A stretch of 53,764 nucleotides of DNA from Candidatus Woesearchaeota archaeon (GCA_046538795.1 JBKHIF010000001.1:1-53764), one strand, 5' to 3'. Shown: positions 9,843 through 42,800, counted from the first letter of the stretch. Notes: generated by a model from the letters alone, not told the origin. Numbers and translations: made by a program.

Positions 9843-10133
9843 ATGGAATGCAGGCACATATTGATAAAGGGAAGAGTTCAGGGAGTAGGATTCAGGGCCA
9901 GCGCAAGCTCAAGAGCAAGATCTCTTGAAATCTATGGGACTGTAGAAAATCTAAACGATGGATCTGTCGAGATATATTGTTGTGGAGATAAAAAAAACTT
10001 AGACCCTTTCATAGATTATCTGAAAAACAATCCTGGATGGAGTTCTGTAAGCGACATAAATATCAACAAGATAAATGATAAAAATAAGGCAGAAAAAATC
10101 CTAAATTCCGGATCATTTAATATTCTTAGATAA
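9843..10133 (+). CDS. acyP: Acylphosphatase
   Basis: Signature GRVQGVGFR and ENLNDGSVE. 96 aa. Confidence 0.9.
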   Translation: MECRHILIKGRVQGVGFRASASSRARSLEIYGTVENLNDGSVEIYCCGDKKNLDPFIDYLKNNPGWSSVSDININKINDKNKAEKILNSGSFNILR

Positions 10134-10979: not shown

Positions 10980-10980
10980 C

Positions 10981-26757: not shown

Positions 26758-27819
26758 CTACTTTTTTAGCAACCTGAATATTTTTTGTATGTTTTCTCTC
26801 GTATATCCCAGCTGCATCATATAACCGGATATCTGGTCTTTTGTATATCCTTGTCTGAAAAGCCCATCAACGTATCTGATCACAGGATCATCAAATATCT
26901 TCCTGCTTTGTTTTGAAAACATATAGCTTCCGCTTACAAAAAGCAGAGCAACTGAAAGTATGAACAAAAATATAAGCGCAAAATCAGAATAATCAGGACC
27001 ATAATCAACCTCTTCATAATGATAGGAACGCTTATAAGCAATTTTTTCTGCATCCTCTTTATTTTCAGGATTATCCCTTTCTTCTGCTTCTTCAAGAAGG
27101 ATCGCATCATTATCATTTTCTTCAGACACACATCTGCCTATGCAGCATTTTGTTCCAAAATCATCTGAGTATATATTTTCACCATCACATTCCTGATATA
27201 TAGTGCAGGGTTTTCCTCCCAAAGAATTGCATGAAATAAGATCATCTTCTTCTAAAAGAGAAATGCAGTCTTCATCACACCCACAATCAATATCTTTTTC
27301 CTCGCAATCAGGATCACATATCCCATCATCCTCTAGATCGCAATAATTATCACTTTCACCAGAATCACAGTCATCGCATGATGCAAAACTTTCTGAAAGA
27401 CTGCACCCAGAATCACTGCATGGCTCGCATATTCCGTCATTATCGCACAAATTTATCAACCTATAATCGCCAGAAAAACCATAACCTGTCCTGAAGTAAT
27501 AGATATCTGAAGAACTCTCATCGACATGAAATACCACTCTTCCTGAATCATCAATCTTTTCCGAGGAAATTAGCTCTTTTGAATCATCATAAAGAAGAAC
27601 AGGAATCCCTGTATTCAAAGAGTCTCCTTTGTAAAACTCCCGACTATAAAATTCATTCCAGCTAAAAGCATAATATTTCTCAACGTTCATATCAGAATCA
27701 AATTCAATGAATATATCAAGAGCAGAAGAAAAAGGAATAACCAACATCACAAGAGCAAGAGCTATTAAATAAAAACGGTTTTTATTTCTTTTAAATATTA
27801 AAAAAATTTTGTCTCTCAT
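26758..27819 (-). CDS. Cys/Asp-rich secreted protein with a C-terminal TM anchor and a small basic cytoplasmic domain
   Basis: N-terminal signal/anchor (YLIALALVMLVIPFSSA), a Cys/Asp cluster (CDNDGICEPCSDSGC...CDLEDDGICDPDCEEKDIDCGCDEDC), then the TM FALIFLFILSVALLFVSGSYMF and a ~55-aa tail. Confidence 0.7.
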   Translation of the reverse strand: MRDKIFLIFKRNKNRFYLIALALVMLVIPFSSALDIFIEFDSDMNVEKYYAFSWNEFYSREFYKGDSLNTGIPVLLYDDSKELISSEKIDDSGRVVFHVDESSSDIYYFRTGYGFSGDYRLINLCDNDGICEPCSDSGCSLSESFASCDDCDSGESDNYCDLEDDGICDPDCEEKDIDCGCDEDCISLLEEDDLISCNSLGGKPCTIYQECDGENIYSDDFGTKCCIGRCVSEENDNDAILLEEAEERDNPENKEDAEKIAYKRSYHYEEVDYGPDYSDFALIFLFILSVALLFVSGSYMFSKQSRKIFDDPVIRYVDGLFRQGYTKDQISGYMMQLGYTRENIQKIFRLLKK

Positions 27820-27844: not shown

Positions 27845-29806
27845 CTAACCTATTTCAAGGATATTTTCAATAGCAGATTCATAATATTCTCTCGAGCTAA
27901 GATCTTCTATGTCTGAATTATCTATAGCATTCTTAGAAAAAATTATCTCTGGAGTGAATCGCCTGAATTCAGCATCATAATAAAATTCCAGAGGATCAAC
28001 TGCTTTTTTCACAGGACCCACAACCCAGTCATAGCACCTGCTTCCCATAATTTTCTCATTATCTGAACCATCCTTGTGAATTTCAAAATAAAATGCCCCT
28101 ATATCTGTTCCTGGAAAAACACCAGCCTCAGCAATCCTTCTTCCAGAAAGAATTATTTCTCCTGGTTCGACAAATATATTTTCTGCAAAATAATATCTTG
28201 ATACAAATCCATTATTATGATCTATCTCTATGATATTTGCCTGAGCATATTTTTCATCTATTTCAGCGCCCTCATATGTCAGTGATTCTTCTCCTGCACG
28301 AATGACCCTTCCTCCGGAAACTGCATATATATTATCCCCCACATCTGAACCAAGCATCAAACCTGGAAAAAATTCAAGATCATTTCCTGAATTCCCGCAC
28401 CTTGTCATGCCAAAAAGATTTATTACATTAAGATGAGATTGTTTCATTGAATCCAGAGGATAATATGATACCCAGTTATTATTTTCATTCTCAAGAAGAA
28501 CGCCTTTGTAAGGATCAAAGTCCGGATCAAACACTCTTCCTTTTATCTTAATGATAATTCCTCCTCTCTTCTGCCAGGCAGGTTCAAGAAGATCTCTTGA
28601 AAGAATTATATTATTTCCCACATCATTTGATGCCCCCTTTGTATAAGGATCATTTGCGATAACATAATTTTCTCCTGCATAAAGAATCACCAGATAATGT
28701 CCTCCTGTACAGTATGTCCTGTCAAGAACATCAATATCTTCTTCACACAAGCCAGCAAGCTCCTGATTTTGCAAAAGCAACACAGGACCCTGAGAAACTG
28801 CATATATCAAATCATCCCATGCCACATCATGGCTAACTTCTGCAACAAGATTTTTGCTTTCTGCAAATTTCTGCAATGTATCAGGATCATATCCATCTTT
28901 AGAGAAACAAGTGCCGTCCCCATTCTTGTTAAAAAAAAACCAGTTATCAGCAGGCACTCCGTAATATTCTAAAACCATGTTCATCGCTGTAGGTCCGCAG
29001 CCAGAAGAGCATAATGTTCCTACTTCATCTGTATCGCATGAAACCTCATATTCCTTTACATCAGAATCACCGCATTGATTAATAAAAGGCACAAGAGGCA
29101 CACCGTTCATCAAGGCATCTTCAGGACATGGGCCTCTGCAACATGAACCACTGCATTCATATCCATCCTGATCACGCACTTCATCTGCAATTAAATTACA
29201 GTAATTGCAAAGATTGCTTGTTTTTCCGCTCATGCCCGCTCCTTTGTTCCTTCCAATATCATATTCCATATCAGAATCAGTTGTTCCTATGACCTTGAGC
29301 TTATCTCCTGTATCTATGACAGAATAATCAAACCTTGCAGGCATATCCCTGTTGTATGCAATCGAATATTTGTAAATGATTGAATTAATCTGCGCCCTGA
29401 AATTATCGTCAAAATTATCTAATGGGTCGCAGGTCTTTTCCTGATCTTTTAAGATGTTGTAATCAAGATATTTTCCGCAAGGGGAATCATCTGCAAAGCC
29501 GCTTTTTTCTGCAAGGGAAAGAAAAGATTGCGCTGCTGAATATTTCACAGACTGATCAAGATAAAAAAGATCCTGTTCAGCCCTGTTTGAAGTAAGGATA
29601 AGATTAATCTGCTTTTCTCCTATATAAAGCGCAGGATCTATTGTTGATTTTTCTCTTTCGCTCCATTGCTTGAACATTGAGTAAGACATAAGTCCTGCAA
29701 TAAGCGAAAAAAGCATGAAAAGAGACAATGTCATGAGCATATTATCTCCTTTTTTATTTCCAAACATTCTCTTTTTTGTTTCAAACATCTTATACATTTT
29801 AATCAT
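27845..29806 (-). CDS. Pilin-signal protein with a papain-like (Peptidase_C39_2-type) domain and a degenerate M23/LytM-like domain
   Basis: N-terminus ..MFGNKKG-DNMLMTLSLFMLFSLIAGLM. C39-like motifs are CGPTAMNMVLEYYG, TGGHYLVILYAG and IANDP. An M23-like beta-core (IIEIDHNNGFVSRYYFAENIFVEPGEII) lacks the expected HxxxD and HxH metal ligands (FPGLML and FYFEIH instead). Confidence 0.65.
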   Translation of the reverse strand: MIKMYKMFETKKRMFGNKKGDNMLMTLSLFMLFSLIAGLMSYSMFKQWSEREKSTIDPALYIGEKQINLILTSNRAEQDLFYLDQSVKYSAAQSFLSLAEKSGFADDSPCGKYLDYNILKDQEKTCDPLDNFDDNFRAQINSIIYKYSIAYNRDMPARFDYSVIDTGDKLKVIGTTDSDMEYDIGRNKGAGMSGKTSNLCNYCNLIADEVRDQDGYECSGSCCRGPCPEDALMNGVPLVPFINQCGDSDVKEYEVSCDTDEVGTLCSSGCGPTAMNMVLEYYGVPADNWFFFNKNGDGTCFSKDGYDPDTLQKFAESKNLVAEVSHDVAWDDLIYAVSQGPVLLLQNQELAGLCEEDIDVLDRTYCTGGHYLVILYAGENYVIANDPYTKGASNDVGNNIILSRDLLEPAWQKRGGIIIKIKGRVFDPDFDPYKGVLLENENNNWVSYYPLDSMKQSHLNVINLFGMTRCGNSGNDLEFFPGLMLGSDVGDNIYAVSGGRVIRAGEESLTYEGAEIDEKYAQANIIEIDHNNGFVSRYYFAENIFVEPGEIILSGRRIAEAGVFPGTDIGAFYFEIHKDGSDNEKIMGSRCYDWVVGPVKKAVDPLEFYYDAEFRRFTPEIIFSKNAIDNSDIEDLSSREYYESAIENILEIG

Positions 29807-29841: not shown

Positions 29842-30456
29842 TTATTCTGACGCCATGTCAACCCCATAAAGTTGTATGATAAATGTTTTTTCATGTGGTG
29901 ATGGTATTATCTGGCTTGCAAGAATCCCTGATGAACGCCTCTTCGCTTTCCTAAGATCATTTTCATCAAAAGGAGATATATAGACAATATTGCTGTCATC
30001 ATCAATCCTTATGTCTGCTGCAGTTCCTGAAAGTATGGCAAGAGAAATATCTCTTCCACGCACCGCAGTCACCTTGATATACCATGATTTCTGTCCATAA
30101 GACAATGATTCGTCAAAATAATCTACTGTCTTTCGTATAAATTCATCATAATATTCTGGCCTCTCATAAGATGGATTTTCGACCCCGCGTATATTCTTTC
30201 CTATAAGATAAAAATTTGACATAGCGATATAATCCGCATAGTTCATGTCATCTTTGAATCTGCTCCTGAGATAATTCAGCAAGAACAATTCCTTATCTAT
30301 TCTATCAAGCTTTGAATCAACATTTATATCTGCCTGAACAGTCTTTATCTTCTGCACCACAAAAGCAGCCAGAAATATTACAAGCATTATTACAACAACC
30401 CCCACAAAAATCCAAATTTCTGCAAGTCCTGCTTTTTTTGACCTTGAATATCTCAT
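29842..30456 (-). CDS. Pilin-like (class III signal) protein, 204 aa
   Basis: MRYSRSKKAG-LAEIWIFVGVVVIMLVIFLAAFVV. The ATG overlaps the upstream stop (ATGA). Confidence 0.7.
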   Translation of the reverse strand: MRYSRSKKAGLAEIWIFVGVVVIMLVIFLAAFVVQKIKTVQADINVDSKLDRIDKELFLLNYLRSRFKDDMNYADYIAMSNFYLIGKNIRGVENPSYERPEYYDEFIRKTVDYFDESLSYGQKSWYIKVTAVRGRDISLAILSGTAADIRIDDDSNIVYISPFDENDLRKAKRRSSGILASQIIPSPHEKTFIIQLYGVDMASE

Positions 30457-31004
30457 TTTGCCTCAAAATAACCTTCTGTCGTATCTAAATTTACTGTTAC
30501 TGATTTTACCTCGATAATAAATTTTCCTTCTGCAGGTGATGATGGATCATCATCAATCAAAAGTACCTTTATCACTGGCCTCTGATTTATTTCCTGAGAG
30601 CTCTTATTCCAGTTTGAAGTTGAAAGTTCTATCCTTTGATCAAGAGTTTCTGAAACAAGCGATATCCTGAATGCATAATTAACAGAATCCAGCCTGAAAC
30701 ATTCATCAAGGTTTTGTTGGTTAAATTTATCAAGATCTATTATTCCTGGATATGCCCTGTTAACCTCATCACGATATACGAAACACGAAGGAGAAGATAT
30801 AAGCCTCTGCGAAAGTATGCTTTCCTCTACATCTTCATTCATCTTATATTTTTCACCAGTATCTACAGATACAAGAACTACAAACATGGCTGCTGTTATG
30901 CTTAAAGATAAAAAAAGAAATATTATGTGCATAGTGTCTTCTGCAATAGTTCCTTTTTTATTACTAAATACAGACTTCCTGAAAATTAGACTAATTCCGC
31001 TCAC
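30453..31004 (-). CDS. Pilin-like (class III signal) protein, 183 aa
   Basis: ..FSNKKG-TIAEDTMHIIFLFLSLSITAAMFVVLV. The only start that retains the signal is GTG at 31004. It overlaps the upstream gene by 14 nt. Confidence 0.65.
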   Translation of the reverse strand: MSGISLIFRKSVFSNKKGTIAEDTMHIIFLFLSLSITAAMFVVLVSVDTGEKYKMNEDVEESILSQRLISSPSCFVYRDEVNRAYPGIIDLDKFNQQNLDECFRLDSVNYAFRISLVSETLDQRIELSTSNWNKSSQEINQRPVIKVLLIDDDPSSPAEGKFIIEVKSVTVNLDTTEGYFEAK

Positions 31005-32001
31005 CTGATTCTCCCATCACTGCTTTGTATATTTTTTCTGCAACTTCACCGTACCTGAAATAAAGATTGTCAGAATATTGTGAATTTATATTTCCTAATT
31101 CAAGAACAATAACATTCGTCCCATAAGACATCGGATAAAGTTCGCTTTCTTCAGATATCCTTGATCGGTCCACAAATTTAAGCGCAGATTTGGTTACATA
31201 ATCCAGTTCACCTGCACTTTCTGCAATGTTGCATGCAAGATTACGAGTTTCATCGCCTCCTGAATAAACATAAACCTCATTTGACATAAAATCGTTTTGT
31301 GAACCAAAACGAAGCACAATAGTAAGATCATAATTCTCTGCAAGATTCCTGTAGTCTGATTCAAAGATAGTTGAACCATCAATCATCCTTGCATTTATTT
31401 CATCTCTTGAAAAAAGACCAAACAAATATTCAGATATTTCTTCTGTATATGATTTTTCTGACACAGATATTGCATTTTCCTCAGGATCTGCTATGACTGC
31501 ATCCTTGTTATCAGAAGACACAAGCAAAATATTTTCCAGGACAACATTATGTCTTGAGCATGAAGGTGTGTTCTTGAAATCTTCCTGGCCTTCGCTGTAA
31601 TATATCTTTCCTGACTGTTTTGTTATGAATATCGTATCAAGTTCAGAAAAAAATGCATCTATATCTTCTCTGTCCTGGCCATAGGCATATCTAACTTCAG
31701 TATCCTCTTCTGGATCAACAATGACCCAGCCAGATCCAATATTGATAAAATAATTCCCTACATCTTCCTTATATGTCATTATAGCGTTTCCCGGAACAGA
31801 ATAAAGAGCATCATTGATTAATGCAAGTTCTCTTGCAACATACATTTTCTGGAATATTTCGCCTGTTGCATATTCCTTTCCCACGCTTATGAAAAGAAAA
31901 GATATAAGGACACCAAGCAGGAAAGAAGCTATGGTAAGTATTACCATCCTGGGACCTGAAAGAGCGCTTGCTCTTTTTTGTTTAAGAAAATAAACACACA
32001 T
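30991..32001 (-). CDS. N-terminally anchored (pilin-like) protein, 336 aa
   Basis: MCVYFLKQKRAS-ALSGPRMVILTIASFLLGVLISFLF. ATG start. Confidence 0.65.
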   Translation of the reverse strand: MCVYFLKQKRASALSGPRMVILTIASFLLGVLISFLFISVGKEYATGEIFQKMYVARELALINDALYSVPGNAIMTYKEDVGNYFINIGSGWVIVDPEEDTEVRYAYGQDREDIDAFFSELDTIFITKQSGKIYYSEGQEDFKNTPSCSRHNVVLENILLVSSDNKDAVIADPEENAISVSEKSYTEEISEYLFGLFSRDEINARMIDGSTIFESDYRNLAENYDLTIVLRFGSQNDFMSNEVYVYSGGDETRNLACNIAESAGELDYVTKSALKFVDRSRISEESELYPMSYGTNVIVLELGNINSQYSDNLYFRYGEVAEKIYKAVMGESGERN

Positions 32002-32087
32002 AGAGTATTTTTAGAGAAACGTGTTTATAAAATTAATGCCTTTGAAAAAAATAATCATCTAAAATATCCTGTAATTGTAGCAAAATA

Positions 32088-32870
32088 CTAATCTTCTTCA
32101 TCAGGGGATAAGACGATATTTTCATCTTCATCCCAGTACATATCCTGAAAATTCCTGCACGCGTCATAATCAGGACAGATAAACACTTCATTGCCATGCT
32201 TGTATATCGAAACTGAAAATGCACCACCTGAATTTCCATTGGTTATTCCTGAATCAATAACAACTCCTTTCTGCTGTTCATCGTCAATAGTAAATATATT
32301 GACTGGAGGATTAGTAATATTAATCTCATCTTGGAGCTGGCTGCATTCTCTTACTGAATATTTTGATCTGCAGTTCCTGTTCCCGCCTTCAATAAGCCTT
32401 GAAAGAGGAAACCCTCTTGTCTCTGTTACAAGAAAATTTTTAAGTTCGCATGATATCTTGTTGAACTTTTTTTCTCTTTCATCATAATCTCTCATGAGGC
32501 ATGCGCATGTCTTTGTCATGTCTAAATTGCAGTTTTCCGGCCTTTCAAAAGTTATCAAATGGTTGCCTTCATTTCTGAAAAATCTAAGTTCAAGAATGTC
32601 TGTCCCTGAATTGAAAAAAACAAGCGCACTTTTGTCCACAAGAATAATTGAACCTGAATCCAATTGATCTTGGGATAAAGAATCAAGTTTTGAAAGAAGA
32701 CTGTTATAGCTGCTTATGCTTTTTTGATCAGTTTGATAACCAACATATTTGAATACTCCAAAAACTATTGAAATAAATACAACTACTGAAAGTATAAAAA
32801 CCACAAGATTTTCAAGAACCAAAATAGTTCCTTTTTTCGATTTATTGAAAGTGCTTAATCCATACTCCAT
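32088..32870 (-). CDS. Pilin-like (class III signal) protein, ~260 aa
   Basis: MEYGLSTFNKSKKG-TILVLENLVVFILSVVVFISIVF. ATG at 32870 is preferred over the TTG at 32888. Confidence 0.7.
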   Translation of the reverse strand: MEYGLSTFNKSKKGTILVLENLVVFILSVVVFISIVFGVFKYVGYQTDQKSISSYNSLLSKLDSLSQDQLDSGSIILVDKSALVFFNSGTDILELRFFRNEGNHLITFERPENCNLDMTKTCACLMRDYDEREKKFNKISCELKNFLVTETRGFPLSRLIEGGNRNCRSKYSVRECSQLQDEINITNPPVNIFTIDDEQQKGVVIDSGITNGNSGGAFSVSIYKHGNEVFICPDYDACRNFQDMYWDEDENIVLSPDEED

Positions 32871-33124
32871 TTGCCTGCACCAGGACAATCAGGATTGTCA
32901 ACCTGTTGTTCTTTAGGAGGATTTGGGCCCTTGCAGGGATCTATAAGATCAACCACATTATCCCCATCCTTGTCTTTTGCATTGTTTATACTGTTTTGAA
33001 ATTCATCTGTTCCGTCCCCCATTCCACGAATAAAAATTACAAGAAGAACAGTCATTACAATCAAAAGTAATGCTGCTGAAACGATTATCGGCATTGTCAT
33101 CTCAAATCCTTTTTTTGATTTCAT
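32855..33124 (-). CDS. Small pilin-like protein (~89 aa) with a TSP3-like Ca-binding loop
   Basis: MKSKKG-FEMTMPIIVSAALLLIVMTVLLVIF. GGTGAT lies 5 nt upstream of ATG 33124. The C-terminal part DKDGDNVVDLIDPC resembles a thrombospondin type-3 repeat. Confidence 0.75.
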   Translation of the reverse strand: MKSKKGFEMTMPIIVSAALLLIVMTVLLVIFIRGMGDGTDEFQNSINNAKDKDGDNVVDLIDPCKGPNPPKEQQVDNPDCPGAGKWSMD

Positions 33125-33143
33125 GAATATCACCATCTAAATT

Positions 33144-34934
33144 TTAATTCAATATGCTTGTAAAAAAACTTTTCTGATTTTCTGAACATAATCTGTTCTC
33201 AAGATATGGACCAAGTTCTGAAAATTCAATGCCCGGCCATAATTGCGGCACAGGAGAAACTGAATAACTGTCAGATTCTTTGCGTATAACATAAAGAGAT
33301 TTCCCCTGAAGACTTCCTTCAAAATAATCCTCAAACCATGCAACATTATTTCCTCCCCCTGCCTTATTTGCCGGAGAAACTTTATTCTGCATTGCAAATG
33401 TTCTTTTCTCTATATGATGGCATCCTTCAACAGTAAATGCAAAACTAAATTCATCTTCCCAGGGAAGAGCAATCCTAAAACGATTCTCAAGAGCAAAATA
33501 ATCTTTCATCTCATTGCCCTTTGCATATATCAGATTATTTCCTGAAGGAAGCATTGTGTTGAATCCGACATTATCACAGCCAGAACCATCATTATTGATA
33601 TAGATGTGTTCGTTTCCTGTTTCGATTACCGGAAGAGAATCATGAACAAAAATACACCACTCACCATTTTCTAAAGAATTTACTTTATGATCTGCACCAA
33701 AATTATCAATAAATTCAAGGCTTGTTAAGCTTTGTACATTTTCAATAAACTGCTTTATTTCATCTTTCAGAGTATAACATGTTCCATCATCTAAATTCCA
33801 GACACATTCAAACCCAGCATCAGAGAATGTGCCATTAAGCCTTTGACAAGTATCTTCAGAAAGGGCATCTTCACAGGAATTCTGATCAAGCTCGATCATA
33901 TAGCAGCCTTCTTCCTCATCCCATGCGCAGATCTCTTTGCTGGTTTCTATAAAACCACAATAGTTCTCATTTAGAACTGCCTTGCAGATATTGTCATATA
34001 TTCCTGAAGACATTCTGATAAATGGAGATATATCCAATCCCTCCATATCAACAAGTCCTGAATCATCGCAAAGATCAAACTCTTCTCTCGATATAGTATC
34101 CCTGAATAGGTTCAGATCTGCATTATCGATGTCAAACGATGAAAGTCCTGCTTCATATATCACTGAAATATCTTGGGAAAAATCAAGATCATCGATTATT
34201 TTGTCTGTTACAAAAAAATTAATATCTCCCTGAGAATCATAGTATATTGGTATCCAGGGAATCATATATCGATTTCTCGATGCAAACATGCCAGATATTC
34301 TCATAAGAAAATAATCCTCTCCGTCAATCCTTATGTTATATGTCGGTTTTCCTGAAAAATAGGAGGCATAATGAATGTTAGAAACATCTACTCTTGAAGG
34401 GGTCAAGAAGAAATTTTTTGTGTCAGAATCAATGTCTGAAGCAAGATCATACATATATCTTCCATCATTTTTTGACCCTGGTCTGAAAAGATTAAATTTT
34501 CTTGAAAATGATTCGACCTGAGGATTCTGCGATCCAATGATTGTAATAATTGTTCTTCTACTGTTCTTTGTTATCTCATAAGAATATTCACTGTCAGAAA
34601 AATCAGGAATAAAAGCTATGCAATTTCTGTAATTATTTTCATTTTCAAAAACATCAAACAATATGCTCTTTGCCTCATCGAAATCCAATCCCGGATCGGA
34701 GTCATCCTGAAGAGCCTCTTCATATTCTCGATCCACAAGATGACGCTCTTTCATCGCATCCTGGAAATCTTTATCTGCTTTTTCATTAAAAGATACAATA
34801 AGCTCATTCAAAGCTCCTGATCCAAAAACCATAATTACAATAACAACTGTAAACACAAGTATAGCAGCAATTACAGGGGTGAGTACATAGGAAACACCTT
34901 TCTTATTATATATACTATTATCCATGATTTTCAT
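33144..34934 (-). CDS. Large pilin-like protein (~596 aa)
   Basis: MKIMDNSIYNKKG-VSYVLTPVIAAILVFTVVIVIMVF, which resembles the archaeal pilin N-terminal motif (G-VSPVIATVLL). It has a Cys-rich central region. The track start at 34946 is TTG, so ATG 34934 is used. Confidence 0.75.
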   Translation of the reverse strand: MKIMDNSIYNKKGVSYVLTPVIAAILVFTVVIVIMVFGSGALNELIVSFNEKADKDFQDAMKERHLVDREYEEALQDDSDPGLDFDEAKSILFDVFENENNYRNCIAFIPDFSDSEYSYEITKNSRRTIITIIGSQNPQVESFSRKFNLFRPGSKNDGRYMYDLASDIDSDTKNFFLTPSRVDVSNIHYASYFSGKPTYNIRIDGEDYFLMRISGMFASRNRYMIPWIPIYYDSQGDINFFVTDKIIDDLDFSQDISVIYEAGLSSFDIDNADLNLFRDTISREEFDLCDDSGLVDMEGLDISPFIRMSSGIYDNICKAVLNENYCGFIETSKEICAWDEEEGCYMIELDQNSCEDALSEDTCQRLNGTFSDAGFECVWNLDDGTCYTLKDEIKQFIENVQSLTSLEFIDNFGADHKVNSLENGEWCIFVHDSLPVIETGNEHIYINNDGSGCDNVGFNTMLPSGNNLIYAKGNEMKDYFALENRFRIALPWEDEFSFAFTVEGCHHIEKRTFAMQNKVSPANKAGGGNNVAWFEDYFEGSLQGKSLYVIRKESDSYSVSPVPQLWPGIEFSELGPYLENRLCSENQKSFFTSILN

Positions 34935-34939
34935 CTCAA

Positions 34940-35095
34940 TTACCAAATCCTGAAAAATGCTTTGACTTTATCAAAAAGGCTTGTTCCAAAAATAGACAAT
35001 ATTATTATTCCTATGGTTAAAGCAAAAAGTATCAATATTATCTTTCCGAGATTCTCCATGATAAAATTTCCTTTTTTGGATTTTATTGTTTTCAT
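34940..35095 (-). CDS. Mini pilin-like protein, 51 aa (not in the ORF track)
   Basis: Hand-translated: MKTIKSKKGNFIMENLGKIILILFALTIGIIILSIFGTSLFDKVKAFFRIW. It has the same KSKKG-hydrophobic N-terminus as its neighbours and fills the gap between 34934 and 35106. Confidence 0.6.
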   Translation of the reverse strand: MKTIKSKKGNFIMENLGKIILILFALTIGIIILSIFGTSLFDKVKAFFRIW

Positions 35096-35105
35096 CTTTA
35101 CCATT

Positions 35106-36194
35106 TCAACCTTTCATACGTATTACTTCACATTCGTTTTCAATATCTTCAAGCTTCCCAATCATTATAAGAGACGACTTTGGATCTTCAGGATCAAACT
35201 CAAAATCCTTCAAAGCATCTTCATTCATGCCGTATGGATTATACTGGTTATAAAGATTAGCGCTTGACTCGCTTAATGGTTCAGGTATCCTTATTGCAAT
35301 CGCATATTGTGTTCCGCTATTAAAACCCTGATTTCCCACATTCTGGACAAGAAGGAGACCATCTTCATATCCATGTTCAGCTACATATTCAAAATATGTA
35401 TACGACTTATCTTTTTTAACACAGCACACATCATCTTTATCGCAAGTAAATTCAAAAGAACTTGTGTATTTTCTAAGGCCGTCAGGGCAATTATCTCCCT
35501 TGGATATGCATTCCCCCCCATTCATCTCACAGTTGTTTCGTCTTACATAATCCAACCCTGAAGAGCAATCTGGATCTTCTGAATCGATATATCCGTCATC
35601 GTCATCATCTATACCATTATTGCAGTAAGACTCCCTTAATTCAGGCTCAACCATATAAAGATTCTCGTACAGAAAAAGCTGAAGTGAAGAATGATCAAAT
35701 ATAGTATCGCCAGATCTTTTATAACCTGGCTGGCCGTAATTGCTCTCCTCGATTGATTTAGCTATGCCCGCATCATCTATGGTGAATATATAGCAGACAT
35801 GGCATTCATCTCCCCAATAATCTTTAAGCGTATCTTCATACAATCCCTCGCCAAACATATACCAGCACTTGACAGCATAATCACCTATGTTTCCCATTAT
35901 GCCTTCTATACTCATTTCATGAAGATCATCAGGTATTTCTCGTTCATAGCTGAAGCACTGAAGAGGGACTATCTTTTGTTCTCCTATAAGTCCGCCCGGC
36001 TTGCCGGGATCAATAGTATATTCATCTCTTGCAAAGACACTTACCCTGCATATTTCCTCCTGGCCTTTTTCCTGGACATTATCAGTAGTAAATATGGCAA
36101 ACCCTGACAAGACAAACATACTGCCAAGTATGAGAATTATAGTTACAAGTTTCTTAAGCGTCATATCTCCTTTCTTATTAGGGAAGCATAGCAT
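35106..36194 (-). CDS. Pilin-like protein (362 aa) with a MopE-like Asp-rich motif and a C-terminal CExxGGxC Cys module
   Basis: MLCFPNKKG-DMTLKKLVTIILILGSMFVLSGF. Motifs YCNNGIDDDDDGYIDSEDPDC and NCEMNGGECISKGDNCPDG...CDKDDVCC. Confidence 0.7.
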   Translation of the reverse strand: MLCFPNKKGDMTLKKLVTIILILGSMFVLSGFAIFTTDNVQEKGQEEICRVSVFARDEYTIDPGKPGGLIGEQKIVPLQCFSYEREIPDDLHEMSIEGIMGNIGDYAVKCWYMFGEGLYEDTLKDYWGDECHVCYIFTIDDAGIAKSIEESNYGQPGYKRSGDTIFDHSSLQLFLYENLYMVEPELRESYCNNGIDDDDDGYIDSEDPDCSSGLDYVRRNNCEMNGGECISKGDNCPDGLRKYTSSFEFTCDKDDVCCVKKDKSYTYFEYVAEHGYEDGLLLVQNVGNQGFNSGTQYAIAIRIPEPLSESSANLYNQYNPYGMNEDALKDFEFDPEDPKSSLIMIGKLEDIENECEVIRMKG

Positions 36195-36291
36195 TTTTTA
36201 TCTTGATATAAAGAACTGCAAAGGCAACACCGACTGTTATAAGTGTTAATATCAGTATAGCTATAAACTTAATATCTGCCTTCTTGTTCAT
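36178..36291 (-). CDS. Mini pilin-like / single-TM peptide, 37 aa (not in the ORF track)
   Basis: Hand-translated: MNKKADIKFIAILILTLITVGVAFAVLYIKIKNAMLP. Its N-terminus MNKKAD matches the neighbour's MNNKKAD. It overlaps the start of 35106..36194 by 17 nt in another frame. Confidence 0.45.
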   Translation of the reverse strand: MNKKADIKFIAILILTLITVGVAFAVLYIKIKNAMLP

Positions 36292-36355
36292 GAGAAATTA
36301 TATAAGAAGTTGGGTATATAAAGTTTTTGAAAGAAAAAGATAAGAAAAACAAGAT

Positions 36356-36634
36356 TTAGCCGTCGCTTTCTTGGTTATCATCTTTATTCAGATTTATGCA
36401 GCAAACAGGTGTTGCATCACTGCATTCTGCGTTTATCTTGACAGAGGGCCAATCACAGGTTGCTTCACTCTGGCATGTTCCGCCTCTTGCTTCACAGCTA
36501 TCCTGCTCATTACTGAAGTTGAGCATCTTCTGTCCAAATATCGCAATAAGTATGATCATGACAAGAAGAGCAACAGCTGCAACAACAATTATATTTATGC
36601 TCATGCCCTGTGCTTTCTTATCTTTCATATTCAT
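36356..36634 (-). CDS. Small Cys-rich pilin-like protein (~92 aa), paralog of 36639..36935
   Basis: MNMKDKKAQG-MSINIIVVAAVALLVMIILIAIF, then SCEARGGTCQSEATC...C..VCC. The start is trimmed to ATG 36634, 4 nt after the upstream stop. Confidence 0.75.
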   Translation of the reverse strand: MNMKDKKAQGMSINIIVVAAVALLVMIILIAIFGQKMLNFSNEQDSCEARGGTCQSEATCDWPSVKINAECSDATPVCCINLNKDDNQESDG

Positions 36635-36638
36635 CAAC

Positions 36639-36935
36639 CTAGACAATGATGCAGCACTGCTCGTCATCATTAGGTTCGCCATTCATCCTGTAACAGACCA
36701 GATCATTTCGTCTCCTTCCTGTTGAAGATGGGCCATTTTCACTCTTTGCAATTGCATCGCACGAACCTCTTCCCAGATCAAAGCACTGCCCTCCTGCAGA
36801 TTCACAGGATTTTGCTTGAATATTAAATATGTTAAGCCTCCCCATAAAAATCAATGAGACTGTAACAAGAACAAGCAATGCAAGCGCTGCAATAATGATA
36901 AAATTCATGCTTAAATCAGCTTTCTTATTATTCAT
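36639..36935 (-). CDS. Small Cys-rich pilin-like protein (~98 aa); major-pilin candidate
   Basis: MNNKKAD-LSMNFIIIAALALLVLVTVSLIF, then SCESAGGQCFDLGRGSC...QCC. GAGGTG lies 7 nt upstream of ATG 36935. The track start at 36944 is GTG. Confidence 0.75.
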   Translation of the reverse strand: MNNKKADLSMNFIIIAALALLVLVTVSLIFMGRLNIFNIQAKSCESAGGQCFDLGRGSCDAIAKSENGPSSTGRRRNDLVCYRMNGEPNDDEQCCIIV

Positions 36936-36984
36936 GAAAGACACCTCTTGATGATGATTATCAAGTAGATAATTATCTTACTCC

Positions 36985-36993
36985 TATATAAAA
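36985..36993 (-). promoter_or_regulatory. TATA-box-like element in the only sizeable intergenic gap of the pilin array
   Basis: The minus strand reads TTTTATATA, ~50 nt upstream of ATG 36935, within the 119-nt gap 36936-37054. Confidence 0.35.
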
Positions 36994-37054
36994 TTTTTCA
37001 TATGGCAAGCGTAGTAAAAACAGTTTTTGATAAATGTTCTGACGTTGTGTGCTA

Positions 37055-37606
37055 TCAGTTGCATATCCAGGTCTCTATCACAAGAGTATTAGGATACAAA
37101 GGAAGAGGATGCCTATCCACCTTTCTTTCCTGCATAGGACACAAATCATCTACTGACTGCTGATCTGATGATGCAAACATCAAATCAGGTATCATATCTC
37201 CGTTTACAGACATGTTTATGAAATATTTTCTGTTCCAGACGCGAAGAGTATCTTCAAGTATCAGGTTTATGGTTTGGGAAGCGTACAAGCAGGAACTTTC
37301 GCCATTTTCACAATTTATCCTTGGATCATCAGGGTTTTTTGCGCAATCGACCAATAGATCTCCTATGTCAAGGTCATTGCAGTCTCTGGTCCTTGTGTTT
37401 ATTATTGCATTTATAGTATTACTTGCAAGCTCTGATTTCTGATAGCTCTGCCTTATTTCAGTTGGCCTGTTGTCAAGTTCTGATTTTATTACAAGAACCA
37501 ATGCGACAGATATAAGCATGACTATAAAAAGAAGTCCAAATACTTCTGCCTGAGCCTTTCTGCTTTTCTCTTCTTTTTTAAGCTGTTTGGTATTTTTTTT
37601 CGCCAT
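37055..37606 (-). CDS. Pilin-like (class III signal) protein, 183 aa
   Basis: ..KKEEKSRKAQ-AEVFGLLFIVMLISVALVLV, with 6 Cys in the mature part. Confidence 0.7.
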   Translation of the reverse strand: MAKKNTKQLKKEEKSRKAQAEVFGLLFIVMLISVALVLVIKSELDNRPTEIRQSYQKSELASNTINAIINTRTRDCNDLDIGDLLVDCAKNPDDPRINCENGESSCLYASQTINLILEDTLRVWNRKYFINMSVNGDMIPDLMFASSDQQSVDDLCPMQERKVDRHPLPLYPNTLVIETWICN

Positions 37607-37624
37607 GTTGAATATCTGAATATC

Positions 37625-38155
37625 TCACACTATACTTTTTCCAGGTTCATAATATAGGACTTCCATGTATCCAAAATAATAAGCCTTTTCTCTTGAATCA
37701 TATACAGATAATGGGAGCTGGATTGCGATTTGCGAAGTCTCTTCAAGCTCATTTTCATATAAAATCCAGGATCTTTGGTTTGGATATACTTCAGTAATAG
37801 TAATCATGCTATACCTGAAATAAGGATAATAATATTCCTGATTTTGTCTTAATATATCTTCAGCAGCTTCAACTTTCAGGAAATCAACGCAATTTTCTTT
37901 TTTTACATTATTGAAGCTGCATGCAACCTCAGGCAGGGTTGAAAAAATCTGGGCAAGCTGGACAGTCTCCCTGCTTGTCTGTTCTGACTGTATGTTCTGT
38001 ACATTGCCTTTTTGCCATCTCACATAAAAAACAAGACCAAATATAAGAAGGATAAGAAATATAAAAAGCACCATTATGGTCTCGCCCATCTTGATGTCCT
38101 GTGCTTTTTTACTGATGTTGAATATTTTATAATGATCTTTTTTCATCCATATCAT
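37625..38155 (-). CDS. Pilin-like (class III signal) protein, 176 aa
   Basis: ..FNISKKAQ-DIKMGETIMVLFIFLILLIFGLVF. Confidence 0.7.
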   Translation of the reverse strand: MIWMKKDHYKIFNISKKAQDIKMGETIMVLFIFLILLIFGLVFYVRWQKGNVQNIQSEQTSRETVQLAQIFSTLPEVACSFNNVKKENCVDFLKVEAAEDILRQNQEYYYPYFRYSMITITEVYPNQRSWILYENELEETSQIAIQLPLSVYDSREKAYYFGYMEVLYYEPGKSIV

Positions 38156-38159
38156 CTTC

Positions 38160-39260
38160 TCAATAGATTACATCACAGCTTTTTATCTGTGCTTCCTGGT
38201 TCTGATCTTTTAAGCTTTCTGCATAGCTTATCATGTTTGCATATTCATCCATATAATCTCCTGAATTCATGATTTCATAAGAAGATTCATTTATATCCCT
38301 GAATATGTTTCGTGCAGCACTATATACGCTTGAACACGCAGGATCATGCTCTATTGTACGATAATATACCTGCATATCTATTATTTTTTCCCAAAATACA
38401 TTGTTTATGTAATTAAGCCTCCTGAAAGCCTTTCTCATATTGCAGTCATAATACTCTTTTGTATCTGAAAATACTGCCCCGAAAAGCGATGCAGAACCCA
38501 GGTAATATGATTCAGCAAAAGCATTTGATCCAGAATCTATTATTTCCGCTTCATAAAATCTCAACTCTCCGTTTTCATAAGGCGCATCAGAAAAAAAGGG
38601 AATGATCGAAATCGCTGATACCTTATTTCCCTTATCAAGAAACTCCTCTCTCAAAAAAGCAAGATCATTTGCTTGAACACCCATGCTAAGATAAATGACC
38701 CGTGTATTCATGTCATTCAAATTATAGATATCTCCAATATCAGTATAATAATCAGCAGTAAAATGATTTGGAATAGTATCATTGATATATTCCTTCAAAA
38801 CCACTGACCCAGCATTACCTTCATCATACAAGAAAATATAACGTGATTGTGTTGACGAGATAAATAGAAAATTCATGATGCTGTACGGAAGATTCCAGTT
38901 ATATGACCAGGTGACAAGATTCTGACCTTTAAGTTCCATAGGAGCAAAAGTAACATCTGACGATATCTGTGTTGTAAGTCCTGACACCTCATAGACAGAA
39001 TATCCTGAATCTTCACATATAAAATTAATTTCTATGTCAGAAGTCCTTATGAGTGAAGAAGTGCCTGAACCCAGCCTTGCTCCTTCAAATATAGATGCAA
39101 GGTTTTCTTTCACTCTTGCATTTATCGCAACAGTTGCAGAAGATTTTTGCCTTACTGCCATCATTGTAAAAAAACCAAGTATCACAGCACCGGCTACAAG
39201 AATGAATATCCAATTAAACTGCACAGTTATCTGAGCTTTTTTTCTTGATTCAAAGATCAT
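38160..39260 (-). CDS. Pilin-like (class III signal) protein, 366 aa
   Basis: MIFESRKKAQ-ITVQFNWIFILVAGAVILGFFTMMAV. Confidence 0.7.
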   Translation of the reverse strand: MIFESRKKAQITVQFNWIFILVAGAVILGFFTMMAVRQKSSATVAINARVKENLASIFEGARLGSGTSSLIRTSDIEINFICEDSGYSVYEVSGLTTQISSDVTFAPMELKGQNLVTWSYNWNLPYSIMNFLFISSTQSRYIFLYDEGNAGSVVLKEYINDTIPNHFTADYYTDIGDIYNLNDMNTRVIYLSMGVQANDLAFLREEFLDKGNKVSAISIIPFFSDAPYENGELRFYEAEIIDSGSNAFAESYYLGSASLFGAVFSDTKEYYDCNMRKAFRRLNYINNVFWEKIIDMQVYYRTIEHDPACSSVYSAARNIFRDINESSYEIMNSGDYMDEYANMISYAESLKDQNQEAQIKSCDVIY

Positions 39261-39279
39261 GGTAAAATCACACGATTAA

Positions 39280-39804
39280 TCAGGAAAAGCTTATGATTGC
39301 CTTGTTGCCTCTTCCTTCAGCCCAAAATACAACCCTCGAGCGCTTCTCATCAATACACACATATCCACCCTCAATCTCAATCTTATCTACATGAAAAGAT
39401 GCACCTGCATATCTGTCAACAAGAAATACATTTCTTCCTTCAGGACCCATCCACCCCTGTGAATCTTTCCAGTAATTATAGATCACAGGATATTTGCTTT
39501 TAAAAGAAGTATCAGATATCTCATCAGGATGTTTTCCAAGATCTATTATGCATAACTTGTCAAAATTTCCCGGCATCAAAAGGTTTATCTCTTTTCTTGA
39601 TCTGTATTCCTGGGTTATAGCATCAATCTCATTTTGAAGAGTATTTTTAAATTTCACATAATTGATATCGTTTCCCTGTTTCATGACTCCGCCGATTATT
39701 TTTGAACCAAAAAAAACGACAAAACCGATCATAAATAAAGTCATCACCATCATAAGAACATGAGACTGCGGCTGTCCTTTCCTGTTTTTAAATAAAAGCA
39801 TCAT
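39280..39804 (-). CDS. Pilin-like (class III signal) protein, 174 aa
   Basis: MMLLFKNRKGQ-PQSHVLMMVMTLFMIGFVVFF. The ATG overlaps the TGA stop of the 2063-aa gene (ATGA), implying translational coupling. Confidence 0.7.
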   Translation of the reverse strand: MMLLFKNRKGQPQSHVLMMVMTLFMIGFVVFFGSKIIGGVMKQGNDINYVKFKNTLQNEIDAITQEYRSRKEINLLMPGNFDKLCIIDLGKHPDEISDTSFKSKYPVIYNYWKDSQGWMGPEGRNVFLVDRYAGASFHVDKIEIEGGYVCIDEKRSRVVFWAEGRGNKAIISFS

Positions 39805-42800
39805 TTACGTCCACCTTTTGAAGACTGGCTTGATTGTTTCTTTCTGTTTTGGGTCTTATTTGAAATCTGTTTTTTTGATGAATCAGCTTTTGAAGCAGAT
39901 GGTCTGGTTCCCATATCTCCTATATCATCAAAAAGACCATTTATATCTTTTTCTGAAACATGTTTTATTTTGTCTGTCTGTTGTTCTTTTTGAGCGATGT
40001 CTTTTTTTAGCATCTTAGTGAAATCTTCTGAAGAAATTTCAGCAGGATTATCTGTTTCTTTAGATTGAAGTTTCTTTTCTTCTTCCATCTCTTTTTTTAT
40101 ATCTTCATCAAATCCGCTCATGTCAAAAACATCTTTTCTATCCTTATTCTGAGAATTCTTGCTATTATCAGTAAAACCATTATTCTGGGATGCTTGTTTC
40201 AAAAAAGTGTCCTGTGTATTTTCAGAATCTTTTTTCTGCATATTTTTTTGCATGTTTTCAGCAGGAATTTGTATTGATTGGATGTTCTTTTTTAGTGTTT
40301 CAGAAGCTGATCCTGGCTTTTTATCTTTAACTTCTGTTGATTTATCTGAAACCTTGCTCTTATTGTTGTCAAAAGATGACATTGCATTTTTTGAAGCATT
40401 TCCTGAAAATGGTTTCTGTCCTTGAGTTTTTGCAGAACTATTTTTGTCAGAACCAGATAATTTCAAATCATCTTTGGAAATATCCTTTGAATTGTCATTT
40501 GATGTATCTAATATATTTGACCCATAATCATTTGAAAACGATGAGAAAATATCATCTCTTTTTTTCTTTGACTGCTTTGTCCTGAAATTTTTCAGAAGAT
40601 TTTGACCAGGCGTCTTGTTGCTCAATCCCAGATCATCTTTCTTACCAAGACCCAGCGCGTTTCCGATTCCATGACCAATGTTCTGCATGGCATCAGAAAA
40701 TCCTCCCCAAGCTCCCTGAGGCTGGCTTGCAACCTCAGATTTTGCGTCCATTGACTGAGATGCGTCAGACATTCTGTTTCCATCCAGATCAAGACCTGTT
40801 CTGCCAGGATCTTTTGGAAGCCAGGAACCCGGGGTATAATGAGGTATCTCAATATTTGCTTTCCTGAAGAAATCTCTTACCCCCTTATCATCAAGGAACT
40901 GGTCAAATTCAGTCATCCACTTATCTACATAAGGCATTATCTCATAACGCTTCCAGTAAACTACATATCCTCCGCCGCCAAGAAGGAGAAGTATTATCAA
41001 AATTATTATTATCCATGTCCATGGAGAACCAGGCTTGTCATCAGGATCAAGATTGTTTCTCTCTTCCCAACGATCAGTCATTCCATCATTGTCACGGTCA
41101 CTGTCCCTTCCTGAAGAACCAGACTCATCTTCAGGATCATCTTCTTCAGGTTCAGGATTCGTATAGCCAGAACCATCTGATCTTTTGCACCTATCCCGCA
41201 TGCAATTATTTGTCTTGCAATCAGAATCTTCTTCGCAGTCTGAATCAACCTCACAGGCAGGACATGAACCGCCACAATCTATGTCGCTTTCATCATTATT
41301 CTTAATTTCATCTGTGCAGGTTTCAGGAAGAGCTATGCATGTATTAGTCGAATCATCACAAAGCCCAGAACTACAGTCAGCATCCCTTGTGCAATCCATG
41401 TCAAGTTCACACTGTTCACAGCTTCCGCCGCAGTCAACATCGGTTTCATCATTATTCTTAACTCCATCAGAACAAGTATCAGGCATCTCAATGCATGTCA
41501 ATCCTAAAGGATCACATGAAGCTGAAATGCAGTCTCCAGAATCAAGGCAGTCCTCTCCTATGTCACACCCAGGACACGTTGGTCCGCCGCAGTCAGTATC
41601 TGATTCAAAACCATTGCTAATACCATCATCACATGTAGGAAGAGGAGCGCGGCATTTATTTTCATCAGGATCGCAATTTCCTGATATACAGTCTGAATCA
41701 TCCTCGCATCTGTCTCCGCTTGAACATTTTCCGCAATTTCCACCGCAATCAACATCAGTCTCATCGCCATTTTGTATGCCATCATTGCACGGATCAGAGA
41801 GGCATTTTAACAAGGTATCATGACAGAGATTATTTACACAGTCAGAATCAACAGAACAATTTAATCCTGTGCTGCATGGAGAACATGAGCCGCCGCAGTC
41901 AACATCGGTTTCATCATTATTCTTAACTCCATCTGAGCAGGATTCATCCAATTCGACCCTGCAAGTTCCATCTACGCAATCATAATTATGACAATCTGTA
42001 TTTACAAGACAAGATAGCCCGGGATCACATCTCTGAAAATCAGGAGATGATTTGCATGAGCCGCCGCAGTCAACATCGGTCTCATCGCCATTTTGTATGC
42101 CATCATCGCATGAGGGGGTTGCACACATATCAGTAGAATTGCAAAAACCATTTGCACAATCAGAATCTGATGTGCAGTTCAAACCATCTTGGCATTTAAG
42201 ACAGCTTCCGCCGCAGTCAACATCGCTTTCATCCTGATTCTTAACGCCATCAGAACACGTTTGAGGAATTACCTGACAGGTATCTGAAGATCCGCATATC
42301 ATTCCATTCTGGCAATCTTCATCTTCATTGCAGTTCTTGCCTGAACCGCATCCTGAACAAGAACCTCCACAATCAACATCGGTCTCAAGACCGTTTCTTT
42401 TTCCATCAGAGCATGTAGGTTTTGCGCAAAAACCTGCATCAGAATCACAATATAATCCTGTTTTGCAATCATTTCCAGTGCTGCAATTCTGGCCTTCATC
42501 GCATCTTCCACACTCACCACCGCAGTCTATATCTGTTTCTCCATAATCTGGATTGTAATCTCCGTTCTGGCAGTAAGGAGGAATTGTCAAAACTCCGCAT
42601 ATTCCTGTGTCAAGACAGGTTCCGCTCATACAGTCAGAATCAAGATTGCAGTCATCTCCATTTTCACAATTCTTGCATGGTCCTCCGCAGTCAATATCGC
42701 TTTCTCCTGAATTCAATTCTCCATTTGAGCATGATTCTTCAATACAATTTCCTGTGACTGGATCACAGATCTCTGACCAGCAATCAGAATCAACAGAACA

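Follow-up and report, generated by a model that had tools for sequence, protein, structure and literature searches.

The 53.8-kb window analysed here (the whole stretch of 53,764 nucleotides, GCA_046538795.1 JBKHIF010000001.1:1-53764, from a Candidatus Woesearchaeota archaeon) contains an array of 15 pilin-like genes, g1 to g15, followed by a hydrolase gene, g16, with a similar N-terminus (Table 1). With moderate confidence, the region can be read as an operon for the subunits of a type IV filament (a pilus or pseudopilus) specific to the Woesearchaeal lineage, which would be assembled in trans and coupled to adhesins and murein hydrolases for contact with bacteria. The reading is carried by an N-terminal signature that is present in all 15 genes and in g16, and by a collinear gene architecture in 66 loci of Woesearchaeota-type genomes and metagenomes, in which the array lies between a giant surface protein gene and a gene for a peptidoglycan hydrolase. 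The pilin assignment rests on the motif, the predicted architecture, and the clustering of the genes and not on homology.

The 15 open reading frames (ORFs) are arranged head to tail on the minus strand from position 39804 to 29842, with intergenic gaps of −44 to +110 nucleotides. An earlier note on this DNA had given their coordinates and quoted their N-termini, all of which are present in the ORF list of the minus strand. The uninterrupted run of 15 genes that it described is real but longer than thought, as g16 has an N-terminus of the same kind. Its description of the genes as pilin-like is supported by the signature in about 66 loci and by the helix followed by a sheet in the models of g2 and g3; it is weakened by the lack of homology to known pilins and of linked machinery.

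The N-terminal signature

Each array protein carries a leader rich in lysine and arginine, a small residue, and a single hydrophobic segment of about 20 residues at its N-terminus, with no second membrane segment elsewhere in the protein. The full signature consists of the charged leader, Gly, Ala, or Ser (G/A/S) at position −1 of the putative cleavage site, and the hydrophobic N-terminus. A motif detector that asks for a basic residue, then G/A/S, and then a hydrophobic stretch matches 15 of the 15 array proteins compared with three of the 24 other proteins in the window. These three are two downstream neighbours (g16 and a gene for a 900-residue protein, d900) and a polytopic UPF0182 protein. 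Once the downstream neighbours are removed, the background rate of the detector is one in 22 unrelated proteins. Cleavage after the small residue would leave mature proteins of 32 to 583 residues, which agrees with the upper end of the range of about 25 to about 580 residues proposed earlier and corrects its lower end.

The signature extends to the families of the array proteins. A crude, unbiased tally finds G/A/S after a basic cluster in 370 of 538 family members (~69%), a count that is noisy because stop-to-stop ORFs were used and residues upstream of the true start intrude. Individual families show more specific patterns (a slash marks the putative cleavage site). The g1 family begins with [KR][AGS]/Q..[GS]Q[IV]F[IV]YIL, with a conserved Gln at +1 and Gln or Glu at +5, and the g2 family with /Q...QFNWIFIL, with a conserved Gln at +5. 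The g3 family follows [AS]/QIKMGETIAVLF, with Gln at +1 in 35 of 35 members and a conserved Glu at +6, and the g4 family follows /QMEIMGL, with Gln at +1 and a conserved Glu at +3. The small proteins g5, g6, and g11 share KKA/QG[ILM]S[ILM]N[VT]IIIAA[IL]AL, with a conserved Gln at +1 and Asn at +6. These patterns are kept although overall identity is just 25 to 40%. The conservation of a small residue at −1, of Gln at +1, and of polar residues at +3 to +6 is more than a plain membrane anchor would need.

Downstream of the array the motif is less regular. The G/A/S motif is found in 11 of 17 members of the g16 family. The N-terminus of d900 reads RNKAG-KIVFAF and is kept in four of 13 orthologs, and d900 was rejected as a 17th pilin-like protein on that ground.

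Locus architecture in genomes and metagenomes

Related loci were collected by a pattern scan with the g3 alignment in one genome per GTDB species, which yielded 32 loci, and by a metagenome scan, which yielded 80 further loci, 31 of them at least 9 kb long. Iterative hidden Markov models (HMMs) built from the window proteins were mapped onto the loci, 66 in total (35 + 31; individual loci are labelled L001 and so on). The loci, L001, L003, and L004 among them, are collinear. The giant gene comes first and is followed by a nearly invariant g1-g2-g3-g4 quartet. The third position holds one to five copies of the small g5/g6/g11 family with Cys-rich heads and one or two copies of g8, in either order. 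Next come g12-g13-g14-(g15), then the hydrolase in the slot of g16, and often a d900-like protein. The order of the quartet is constant in almost every locus in which all four genes were detected, the one exception being an inversion of g3 and g4 in L006. Intact loci contain about 13 to 17 pilin-like genes, including two headless ones. This bears out the earlier statement that the array is unusually long and heterogeneous, the Epd locus of Methanococcus, the best-studied archaeal comparator in the literature consulted, being an 11-gene cluster that includes the peptidase and accessory proteins (10.64898/2026.04.22.720090).

Not all loci are complete. L024 and L031 carry the giant gene and g1 to g4 alone at this locus, as a minimal module, and the same is probably true of L014 and L028, in which one or two of the quartet genes detected by HMM mapping escaped the simple gene model. 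In BLAST comparisons all 16 window genes correspond one to one with genes of L004 at 26 to 61% identity, and most of them with genes of L003 and L001. The distribution of the individual families varies. The family of g10 is narrow (two loci; 26% identity to the L004 ortholog), and in 16 + about 17 loci that of g12 regularly occupies the place ahead of g13. ORFs of 35 to 65 residues with a class-III-like N-terminus are found at equivalent positions within the array in 40 of the 66 loci. This conservation of position indicates that the tiny g7 and g9 are real genes.

The pilin-like families carry no Pfam or NCBIfam assignment. Searched against 1.84 billion proteins, the g3 profile retrieved 1358 cluster representatives, of which 458 had an expect value (E) of 1e-30 or below. 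None of 80 indexed g3 homologs carries a Pfam domain or an informative name. A profile search was needed here, as a search with the single g3 sequence returned just five matches because the word index limits its sensitivity. The same kind of word-indexed search found 17 relatives of g2, all hypothetical, on contigs with the same gene order, and an exact-sequence look-up of g2 returned no record. Within the array, several genes are related to each other. Profile alignment with hhalign identifies g3 and g4 as paralogs (probability 99.6%, 144 columns), and g14, aligned with g3 at 81.9% over 156 columns, is possibly a more distant g3 paralog. The proteins g5, g11, and g8 are interrelated (g5 versus g11, E 2.8e-39), g8 through its C-terminal part.

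Every homolog of the array proteins belongs to a metagenome-assembled genome (MAG) of Candidatus Woesearchaeota or Nanobdellota or to an unlabelled metagenome contig. The window itself is archaeal, encoding GatD/GatE, RadA, CDC48, an RPA-like protein, and TruD. Among the operon-bearing MAGs that are GTDB species representatives (L005 to L031), many are titled "uncultured Methanosarcinales archaeon", and the operon-bearing record L012 (JAFCCF010000001.1) is titled "Candidatus Aminicenantes bacterium". These titles are probably due to mislabelling or bin contamination.

Some loci show variations on the scheme. The g13 orthologs of L010, L017 (8748-10868), and L018 are 620 to 707 residues long compared with 336 here, with an extension that has no Pfam match, and the g15 ortholog of L016 (17511-18683) carries an added C-terminal DUF2272. 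In L001 (GCA_964602245.1) two more class-III-like N-termini, MSKKAVISNLYKSIAILFIIVL and MVKIYTKSQLTIMIIIGIVIF, are encoded at 96-620 and 3349-4599, upstream of the giant gene, which indicates that the pilin-like set can extend in the 5′ direction in some species. In the window, TTTATATA or TTTTATAA elements lie in the three largest gaps within the array (36945-37054, 36292-36355, and 32002-32087), upstream of g5, g7, and g13. These elements, read by eye, may be archaeal TATA boxes that define sub-operons and allow separate expression of the small pilin-like genes.

Junction classes

The earlier note had divided the array into two motif classes, a K-[AG]-[QD] junction in the first seven genes and mostly K-K-G in the later ones. 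Within the window this division is correct, but its A/G component dissolves across orthologs. For g8, the junction KKG of this window corresponds to KKAQ in L003 and KRG in L001; for g14, KKG corresponds to RKAQ in L004 and KKAQ in L001; and for g15, KKAG corresponds to KKG in L004 and KKAQ in L003. In g9, g11, and g12 the Gly found here is replaced by Ala in L004. The residue at −1 thus flips freely between orthologs, and the A/G split was rejected as a class marker.

The residue at +1 behaves differently in the two parts of the array. Gln occupies it in 29 of 31 members of the g1 family, 35 of 35 of g3, most members of g4, 19 of 34 of g2, and 49 of 77 of the g5/g6/g11 family, and the residue is variable in g8 to g16. 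The A-D junctions of g5 and g7 in this window are local departures from A-Q. A Gln at +1 is the hallmark of the Methanococcus pilins processed by EppA. The specificity of this peptidase has been summarised (PMC4858521). Two processing specificities are therefore plausible and would call for genomes that encode two peptidases. The division into core and tip subunits that had also been suggested is plausible and fits the invariant g1-g4 quartet beside the giant adhesin gene.

Giant surface proteins and murein hydrolases

The array is preceded by a gene for a giant Cys-rich repeat protein of 2063 residues whose stop overlaps the start of g1. In 43 of the 44 loci with enough upstream sequence, an ORF of at least 800 residues likewise ends at the g1 start. 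The protein has two hydrophobic segments, one signal-like at the N-terminus and one transmembrane segment at about residue 1654, followed by a tail of ~400 residues rich in Lys and Ser. This tail is presumably cytoplasmic, which is unusual for an adhesin. No Pfam or NCBIfam model matches the protein, and BLAST matches its repeats to the upstream giants of L001 and L004. Its sequence contains dozens of modules of the form D.D.DCGG.C..C..G..C..D.DC.S..C. A second giant of 2530 residues is encoded further upstream, and in L003, too, a giant of this kind lies ahead of the array. As called, the ORF of the 2530-residue protein shows no N-terminal signal or hydrophobic segment, and it starts close to the end of the window, which puts in doubt either the called start or the route of export.

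At the 3′ end of the operon, the slot is always filled by a peptidoglycan hydrolase, and its catalytic domain differs between species. It is C39-like plus M23 in this window and in L004, M23 in L023, M15/VanY in L001, L003, and L030, M15_4 plus SLT in L016, and SLT in L006 and in the 900-residue protein of the window. That non-orthologous domains replace each other while the place in the operon stays fixed argues for murein cleavage as part of the function of the system. In addition to its Pfam domains, g16 gives weak NCBIfam matches, below cutoff, to peptidoglycan hydrolase and M23-family models. The family of the 900-residue protein stands at the operon end in other loci as well, and its SLT domain is clear in L006. 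Between the two hydrolase genes of the window lies a gene for a Cys-rich acidic protein of 353 residues, for which neither Pfam nor NCBIfam gave a match and HMM mapping found no counterpart in the other loci.

As archaea, the carriers of the operon are assumed to have no murein of their own. Woesearchaeota and Pacearchaeota are reported to encode large murein transglycosylases, for which attachment to or attack on bacteria has been proposed (PMC8204110, PMC9723730). Castelle et al. described 51 families, most of them uncharacterised, that form a module found specifically in these two lineages (PMC8204110), and the pilin-like families may be among them.

Predicted structures

AlphaFold2 models were computed for g2 and g3 from alignments of 16 and 80 homologs, respectively. 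The g2 model (predicted local distance difference test score, pLDDT, 88.2; predicted template modelling score, pTM, 0.82) consists of a helix (residues 5 to 63), β-strands (68 to 144), an α/β domain, and a C-terminal three-helix bundle. In the g3 model (pLDDT 90.6) a disordered leader (residues 1 to 18) is followed by a helix (19 to 72), two strands, two short helices, and four long strands. The helix of g3 starts two residues past the predicted cleavage point. A helix of ~54 residues followed by an antiparallel sheet is the architecture of type IV pilins.

Filament, scaffold, or pseudopilus

Several results weigh against a filament. In searches of Pfam and NCBIfam with E up to 1, no pilin, archaellin, or class-III-signal model matched any member of the array. 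These searches and a second NCBIfam scan with E up to 0.1 produced sub-threshold noise alone, such as PilO, TatA, and a weak defensin-like match on g6; g8 matched an NCBIfam acidic double-disulfide repeat below cutoff. Foldseek searches of the PDB with the g2 and g3 models found no pilins (best E 0.016 for g2 and 0.039 for g3); the matches were spurious ribosomal, methyltransferase, and isomerase structures with template modelling scores of at most 0.29 when normalised to the query and at most 0.38 when normalised to the target. Sequence searches of the PDB with two profiles and with g6 gave nothing meaningful. The two models, covering two of the 15 proteins, give the helix (54 to 59 residues) and the β-sheet at the level of secondary structure, and g7 and g9 have no head at all. 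In many members a partly polar spacer of four to 13 residues, longer than in canonical pilins, lies between the putative cleavage site and the hydrophobic core, and the 2063-residue giant has its own C-terminal transmembrane anchor, unlike PilY1. Neither a secretion ATPase nor a TadC/FlaJ platform nor a prepilin peptidase is encoded in the 53.8-kb window, and in the 66 loci there is no Walker A motif of the T2SSE/FlaI type (G..GSGK[ST]T), no polytopic platform-like protein, and no candidate GxGD-type peptidase within 10 kb on either side. The polytopic proteins that were found near the array are unrelated (SpoIIM in L031, PMT_2 and UPF0182 in the window).

The absence of machinery at the locus is the main gap in the filament argument, but it is compatible with assembly in trans. 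In archaea, pilin genes are frequently found apart from the ATPase/TadC loci, one ATPase can serve several pilin sets, and one clade of nanoarchaeal ATPases is without identified pilins (PMC4858521). Woesearchaeota also express archaellin-type genes strongly (PMC11606122).

The missing pilin homology and the lack of an ATPase, platform, and peptidase in cis would also fit a membrane scaffold at the surface or envelope, built around the giant adhesins and the hydrolases, in which the N-terminus serves as an export or anchor signal (an uncleaved type II anchor or a class III secretion tag). The strong heterogeneity of the mature domains and the polar spacer between the motif and the hydrophobic core of many members point the same way, and class III signals are known from non-pilin proteins such as the substrate-binding proteins of Sulfolobus (10.64898/2026.04.22.720090). 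We nevertheless consider a scaffold rather unlikely. An anchor has no use for the small −1 residue, the invariant +1 Gln, and the polar residue at +3 to +6 that persist at such low identity. The predicted helices continue directly into the β-sheet and do not resemble a 20-residue anchor with a linker. The mature peptides of g7 and g9 (32 to 42 residues) are conserved though they have no domain to anchor, and the bindosome proteins of Sulfolobus are themselves currently viewed as inserting into a pilus-like structure. A pseudopilus dedicated to secretion is the less probable of these two alternatives and on the whole improbable. It would act as a short piston or conduit that pushes the giants and hydrolases through the archaeon's own surface layer, with digestion of environmental murein, and not of a host wall, for nutrition, in line with the prediction that Woesearchaeota are scavengers (PMC9723730). 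The many different "minor" subunits without an obviously dominant major pilin would suit it, as would the co-encoded hydrolases and adhesin-like proteins. It is hard to reconcile with archaea that have no outer membrane needing a type II secretion piston, with giant proteins that bring their own Sec-type signal and transmembrane anchor, and with small Cys-rich pilin-like genes in multiple copies, as major pilins often are; sequence data alone cannot tell such a pseudopilus from the filament favoured here. An artefact, finally, can be regarded as effectively refuted. At ~35% GC, codons for Lys, Ile, and Phe are favoured and hydrophobic N-termini might arise by chance, and g7 and g9 are very short (37 and 54 residues), but the families and their order, short ORFs included, are kept in 66 loci at 25 to 60% identity. 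A mobile-element or viral origin was rejected as well, since composition is uniform over the region, housekeeping genes lie on the flanks, and the RPA gene adjoins the operon in L001 as it does here.

A possible working model

If the genes do encode a type IV filament, its assembly could proceed as follows. A prepilin-type (class III) signal peptidase would cut the subunits after G/A/S, so that g1 to g6, like the EppA substrates of Methanococcus, would begin with Gln. Small (g5/g6/g11) or headless (g7/g9) subunits would then be polymerised into the fibre by a secretion ATPase and a platform encoded in trans. The g1-g4 quartet might form a priming or tip complex tied to the giant adhesin, analogous to FimU-PilVWX with PilY1 or to GspHIJK, and g2, g8, g10, and g12 to g15 might ride on or beside the fibre as minor or modular pilins. 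Hydrolases of the g16 type would act as modular pilins whose enzymatic part cuts into the wall of the bacterium that has been bound, so that the organelle would attach the archaeon to bacterial cells and locally cut their murein.

In its most specific form, the model describes a "grapple-and-drill" organelle, in which a filament of ~15 subunits docks the giant Cys-rich adhesin through its g1-g4 tip, carries the hydrolases as modular pilins, and breaches the wall of a bacterial host or prey, the subunits with +1 Gln and those with a variable +1 residue being processed or assembled separately. This full version is speculative and unlikely to hold in every part. If true, it would give archaea their first described apparatus for parasitism on bacteria.

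Comparison with known systems

The closest known system is the Epd pilus of Methanococcus maripaludis, the archaeal type IV filament "System 1". Both have a multi-pilin operon with several minor pilins, Gln at +1 in the first gene families, a headless type of subunit, and adhesin-like proteins in the locus. The differences are considerable. The array proteins do not match PF04021 at E up to 1 and do not contain QXSXEXXXL, which we take from the Pfam description to be the motif of this family (Class_IIIsignal, formerly DUF361); their motifs are QxxGQ[IV]F, QxxxQFNW, QIKMGET, QMEIMGL, and QG[ILM]S[ILM]N. The array locus lacks EppA, the ATPase, and the two platform genes, and it has about three times as many pilin-like genes, without Pfam or NCBIfam assignment, together with giant Cys-rich proteins and murein hydrolases. 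The Epd major pilin has been described as having no globular domain (10.64898/2026.04.22.720090), and System 1 has been reported in some DPANN archaea (10.64898/2026.04.22.720090, PMC4858521).

The g1-g4 quartet resembles the tip complexes of bacterial filaments (FimU-PilVWX with PilY1, GspH-I-J-K, and ComGD-GG) in being a fixed set of four with one much larger member, g2, next to a gene for a very large adhesin-like protein. In bacteria, the type IVa pilus is primed and tipped by four minor pilins with PilY1 (PMC7541494), and priming and capping of the fibre by a minor-pilin quartet is a general trait of bacterial type IV filaments (PMC7541494, PMC7248040). The archaeal quartet, by contrast, shows no detected similarity to these proteins in sequence or fold, and its giant is anchored by a transmembrane segment of its own; the analogy is drawn from gene organisation alone.

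Modular pilins, which carry functional modules (PMC8179133), offer a parallel for g16. Like PilB of Streptococcus sanguinis, g16 joins a pilin-type N-terminus to further modules, here the enzymatic C39-like and M23 domains. Unlike in pilins of the PilB type, these modules, whose place in a fibre is hypothetical, are peptidoglycan hydrolases and not adhesion domains, and they are encoded by an archaeon presumed to lack murein. The bindosome proteins of Sulfolobus likewise carry large non-pilin domains on class III-type N-termini, with the machinery presumably encoded elsewhere (10.64898/2026.04.22.720090), but their genes are scattered beside transporter genes, whereas those of the array are clustered in one operon. 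A bindosome was rejected, as neither the array nor its neighbours encode substrate-binding or ATP-binding cassette (ABC) transporter domains. The 900-residue SLT protein and the hydrolases at the operon end fit the large transglycosylases of Woesearchaeota and Pacearchaeota ("Module 98", Castelle 2021; Vigneron 2022; PMC8204110, PMC9723730); those studies connect the enzymes neither with class III-type N-termini nor with an operon of pilin-like genes.

Implications

Woesearchaeota are among the most abundant uncultured archaea, and their murein hydrolases have prompted proposals that some of them target bacteria (PMC8204110, PMC9723730). The locus ties their murein hydrolases and giant surface proteins to ~16 conserved hypothetical pilin-like proteins. 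A literature search found no paper describing the operon, and the operon as a unit, its ~16 family-less pilin-like families, and their strict linkage to giant adhesins and swappable hydrolases appear to be undescribed. On the filament reading, the family profiles, which cover over 1000 sequence clusters, would serve in annotating DPANN genomes.

Should the filament reading be true, the operon would represent a concrete, testable machine for host contact. It would supply candidate pilins for a lineage with a secretion ATPase but no cognate pilins, as noted for nanoarchaea (PMC4858521), and would widen the concept of modular pilins and of the "functionalised" type IV filament to cell-wall-degrading enzymes. 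It would also explain how archaeal peptidoglycan hydrolases without a recognised Sec or Tat signal are exported; a survey of these enzymes, although its predictions were made with SignalP 6.0, reported Sec and Tat signals only and recognised a signal in 32% of them (PMC12352652).

Features of the array and its neighbourhood

Table 1. Genes of the pilin-like array and associated genes in the window. A slash marks the predicted cleavage point; all functional descriptions are predictions.
Gene	Position	Strand	Length (residues)	Description	N-terminus
2530-residue protein	46046-53638	-	2530	Giant surface protein; Pfam CarboxypepD_reg, Big_13, Big_3_4	
2063-residue protein	39801-45992	-	2063	Giant Cys-rich repeat protein; 9.6% Cys; stop overlaps g1 start	
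g1	39280-39804	-	174	Pilin-like; opens the invariant quartet; found in 32 loci	NRKG/QPQSHVLMMVM
g2	38160-39260	-	366	Large pilin-like; found in 35 loci	KKA/QITVQFNWIFIL
g3	37625-38155	-	176	Pilin-like	SKKA/QDIKMGETIMVLFIF
g4	37055-37606	-	183	Pilin-like; paralog of g3	SRKA/QAEVFGLLFIV
g5	36639-36944	-	101	Small pilin-like with Cys-rich head; TATA-like box upstream	NKKA/DLSMNFIIIAALALL
g6	36356-36682	-		Small pilin-like with Cys-rich head; probable start 36634 (MNMKDKKAQG)	MNMKDKKA/QGMSINIIVVAA
g7	36178-36291	-	37	Headless (helix-only) pilin-like peptide	MNKKA/DIKFIAILILTLI
g8	35106-36194	-	362	Large pilin-like; C-terminal part Cys-rich and acidic	
g9	34940-35104	-	54	Headless pilin-like peptide	SKKG/NFIMENLGKIILIL
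g10	33144-34946	-	600	Largest pilin-like protein	NKKG/VSYVLTPVIAAIL
g11	32855-33136	-	93	Small pilin-like	SKKG/FEMTMPIIVSAALL
g12	32088-32888	-	266	Pilin-like; probable ATG start 32870	SKKG/TILVLENLVVFIL
g13	30991-32001	-	336	Pilin-like	KQKRA/SALSGPRMVILTIA
g14	30453-31004	-	183	Pilin-like; GTG start	NKKG/TIAEDTMHIIFLFL
g15	29842-30456	-	204	Pilin-like	SKKAG/LAEIWIFVGVVV
g16	27845-29806	-	653	Class-III-like N-terminus; Pfam Peptidase_C39_2 (1.6e-9) and Peptidase_M23 (6e-10)	MFGNKKG-DNMLMTLSLFML
353-residue protein	26758-27819	-	353	Cys-rich acidic protein; signal-like N-terminus and C-terminal transmembrane segment (hydrophobic segments at residues 16 and 277); between two hydrolase genes	
d900	24043-26745	-	900	Extracellular lytic-transglycosylase-like protein; Pfam SLT (4.2e-5, above cutoff)	

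Other genes of the window call for brief mention. A UPF0182 membrane protein is encoded on the plus strand at 136-2886 (E 2.4e-277) and a patatin-like phospholipase on the same strand at 7788-8627. Both families occur mainly in bacteria, which would be in keeping with the bacterial genes reported for Woesearchaeota. On the minus strand, a glycosyltransferase-2 ORF with a TTG start (10113-11108) overlaps the 3′ end of GatE (10981-12852) by 128 nucleotides, and its true start probably lies further downstream than the listed TTG.

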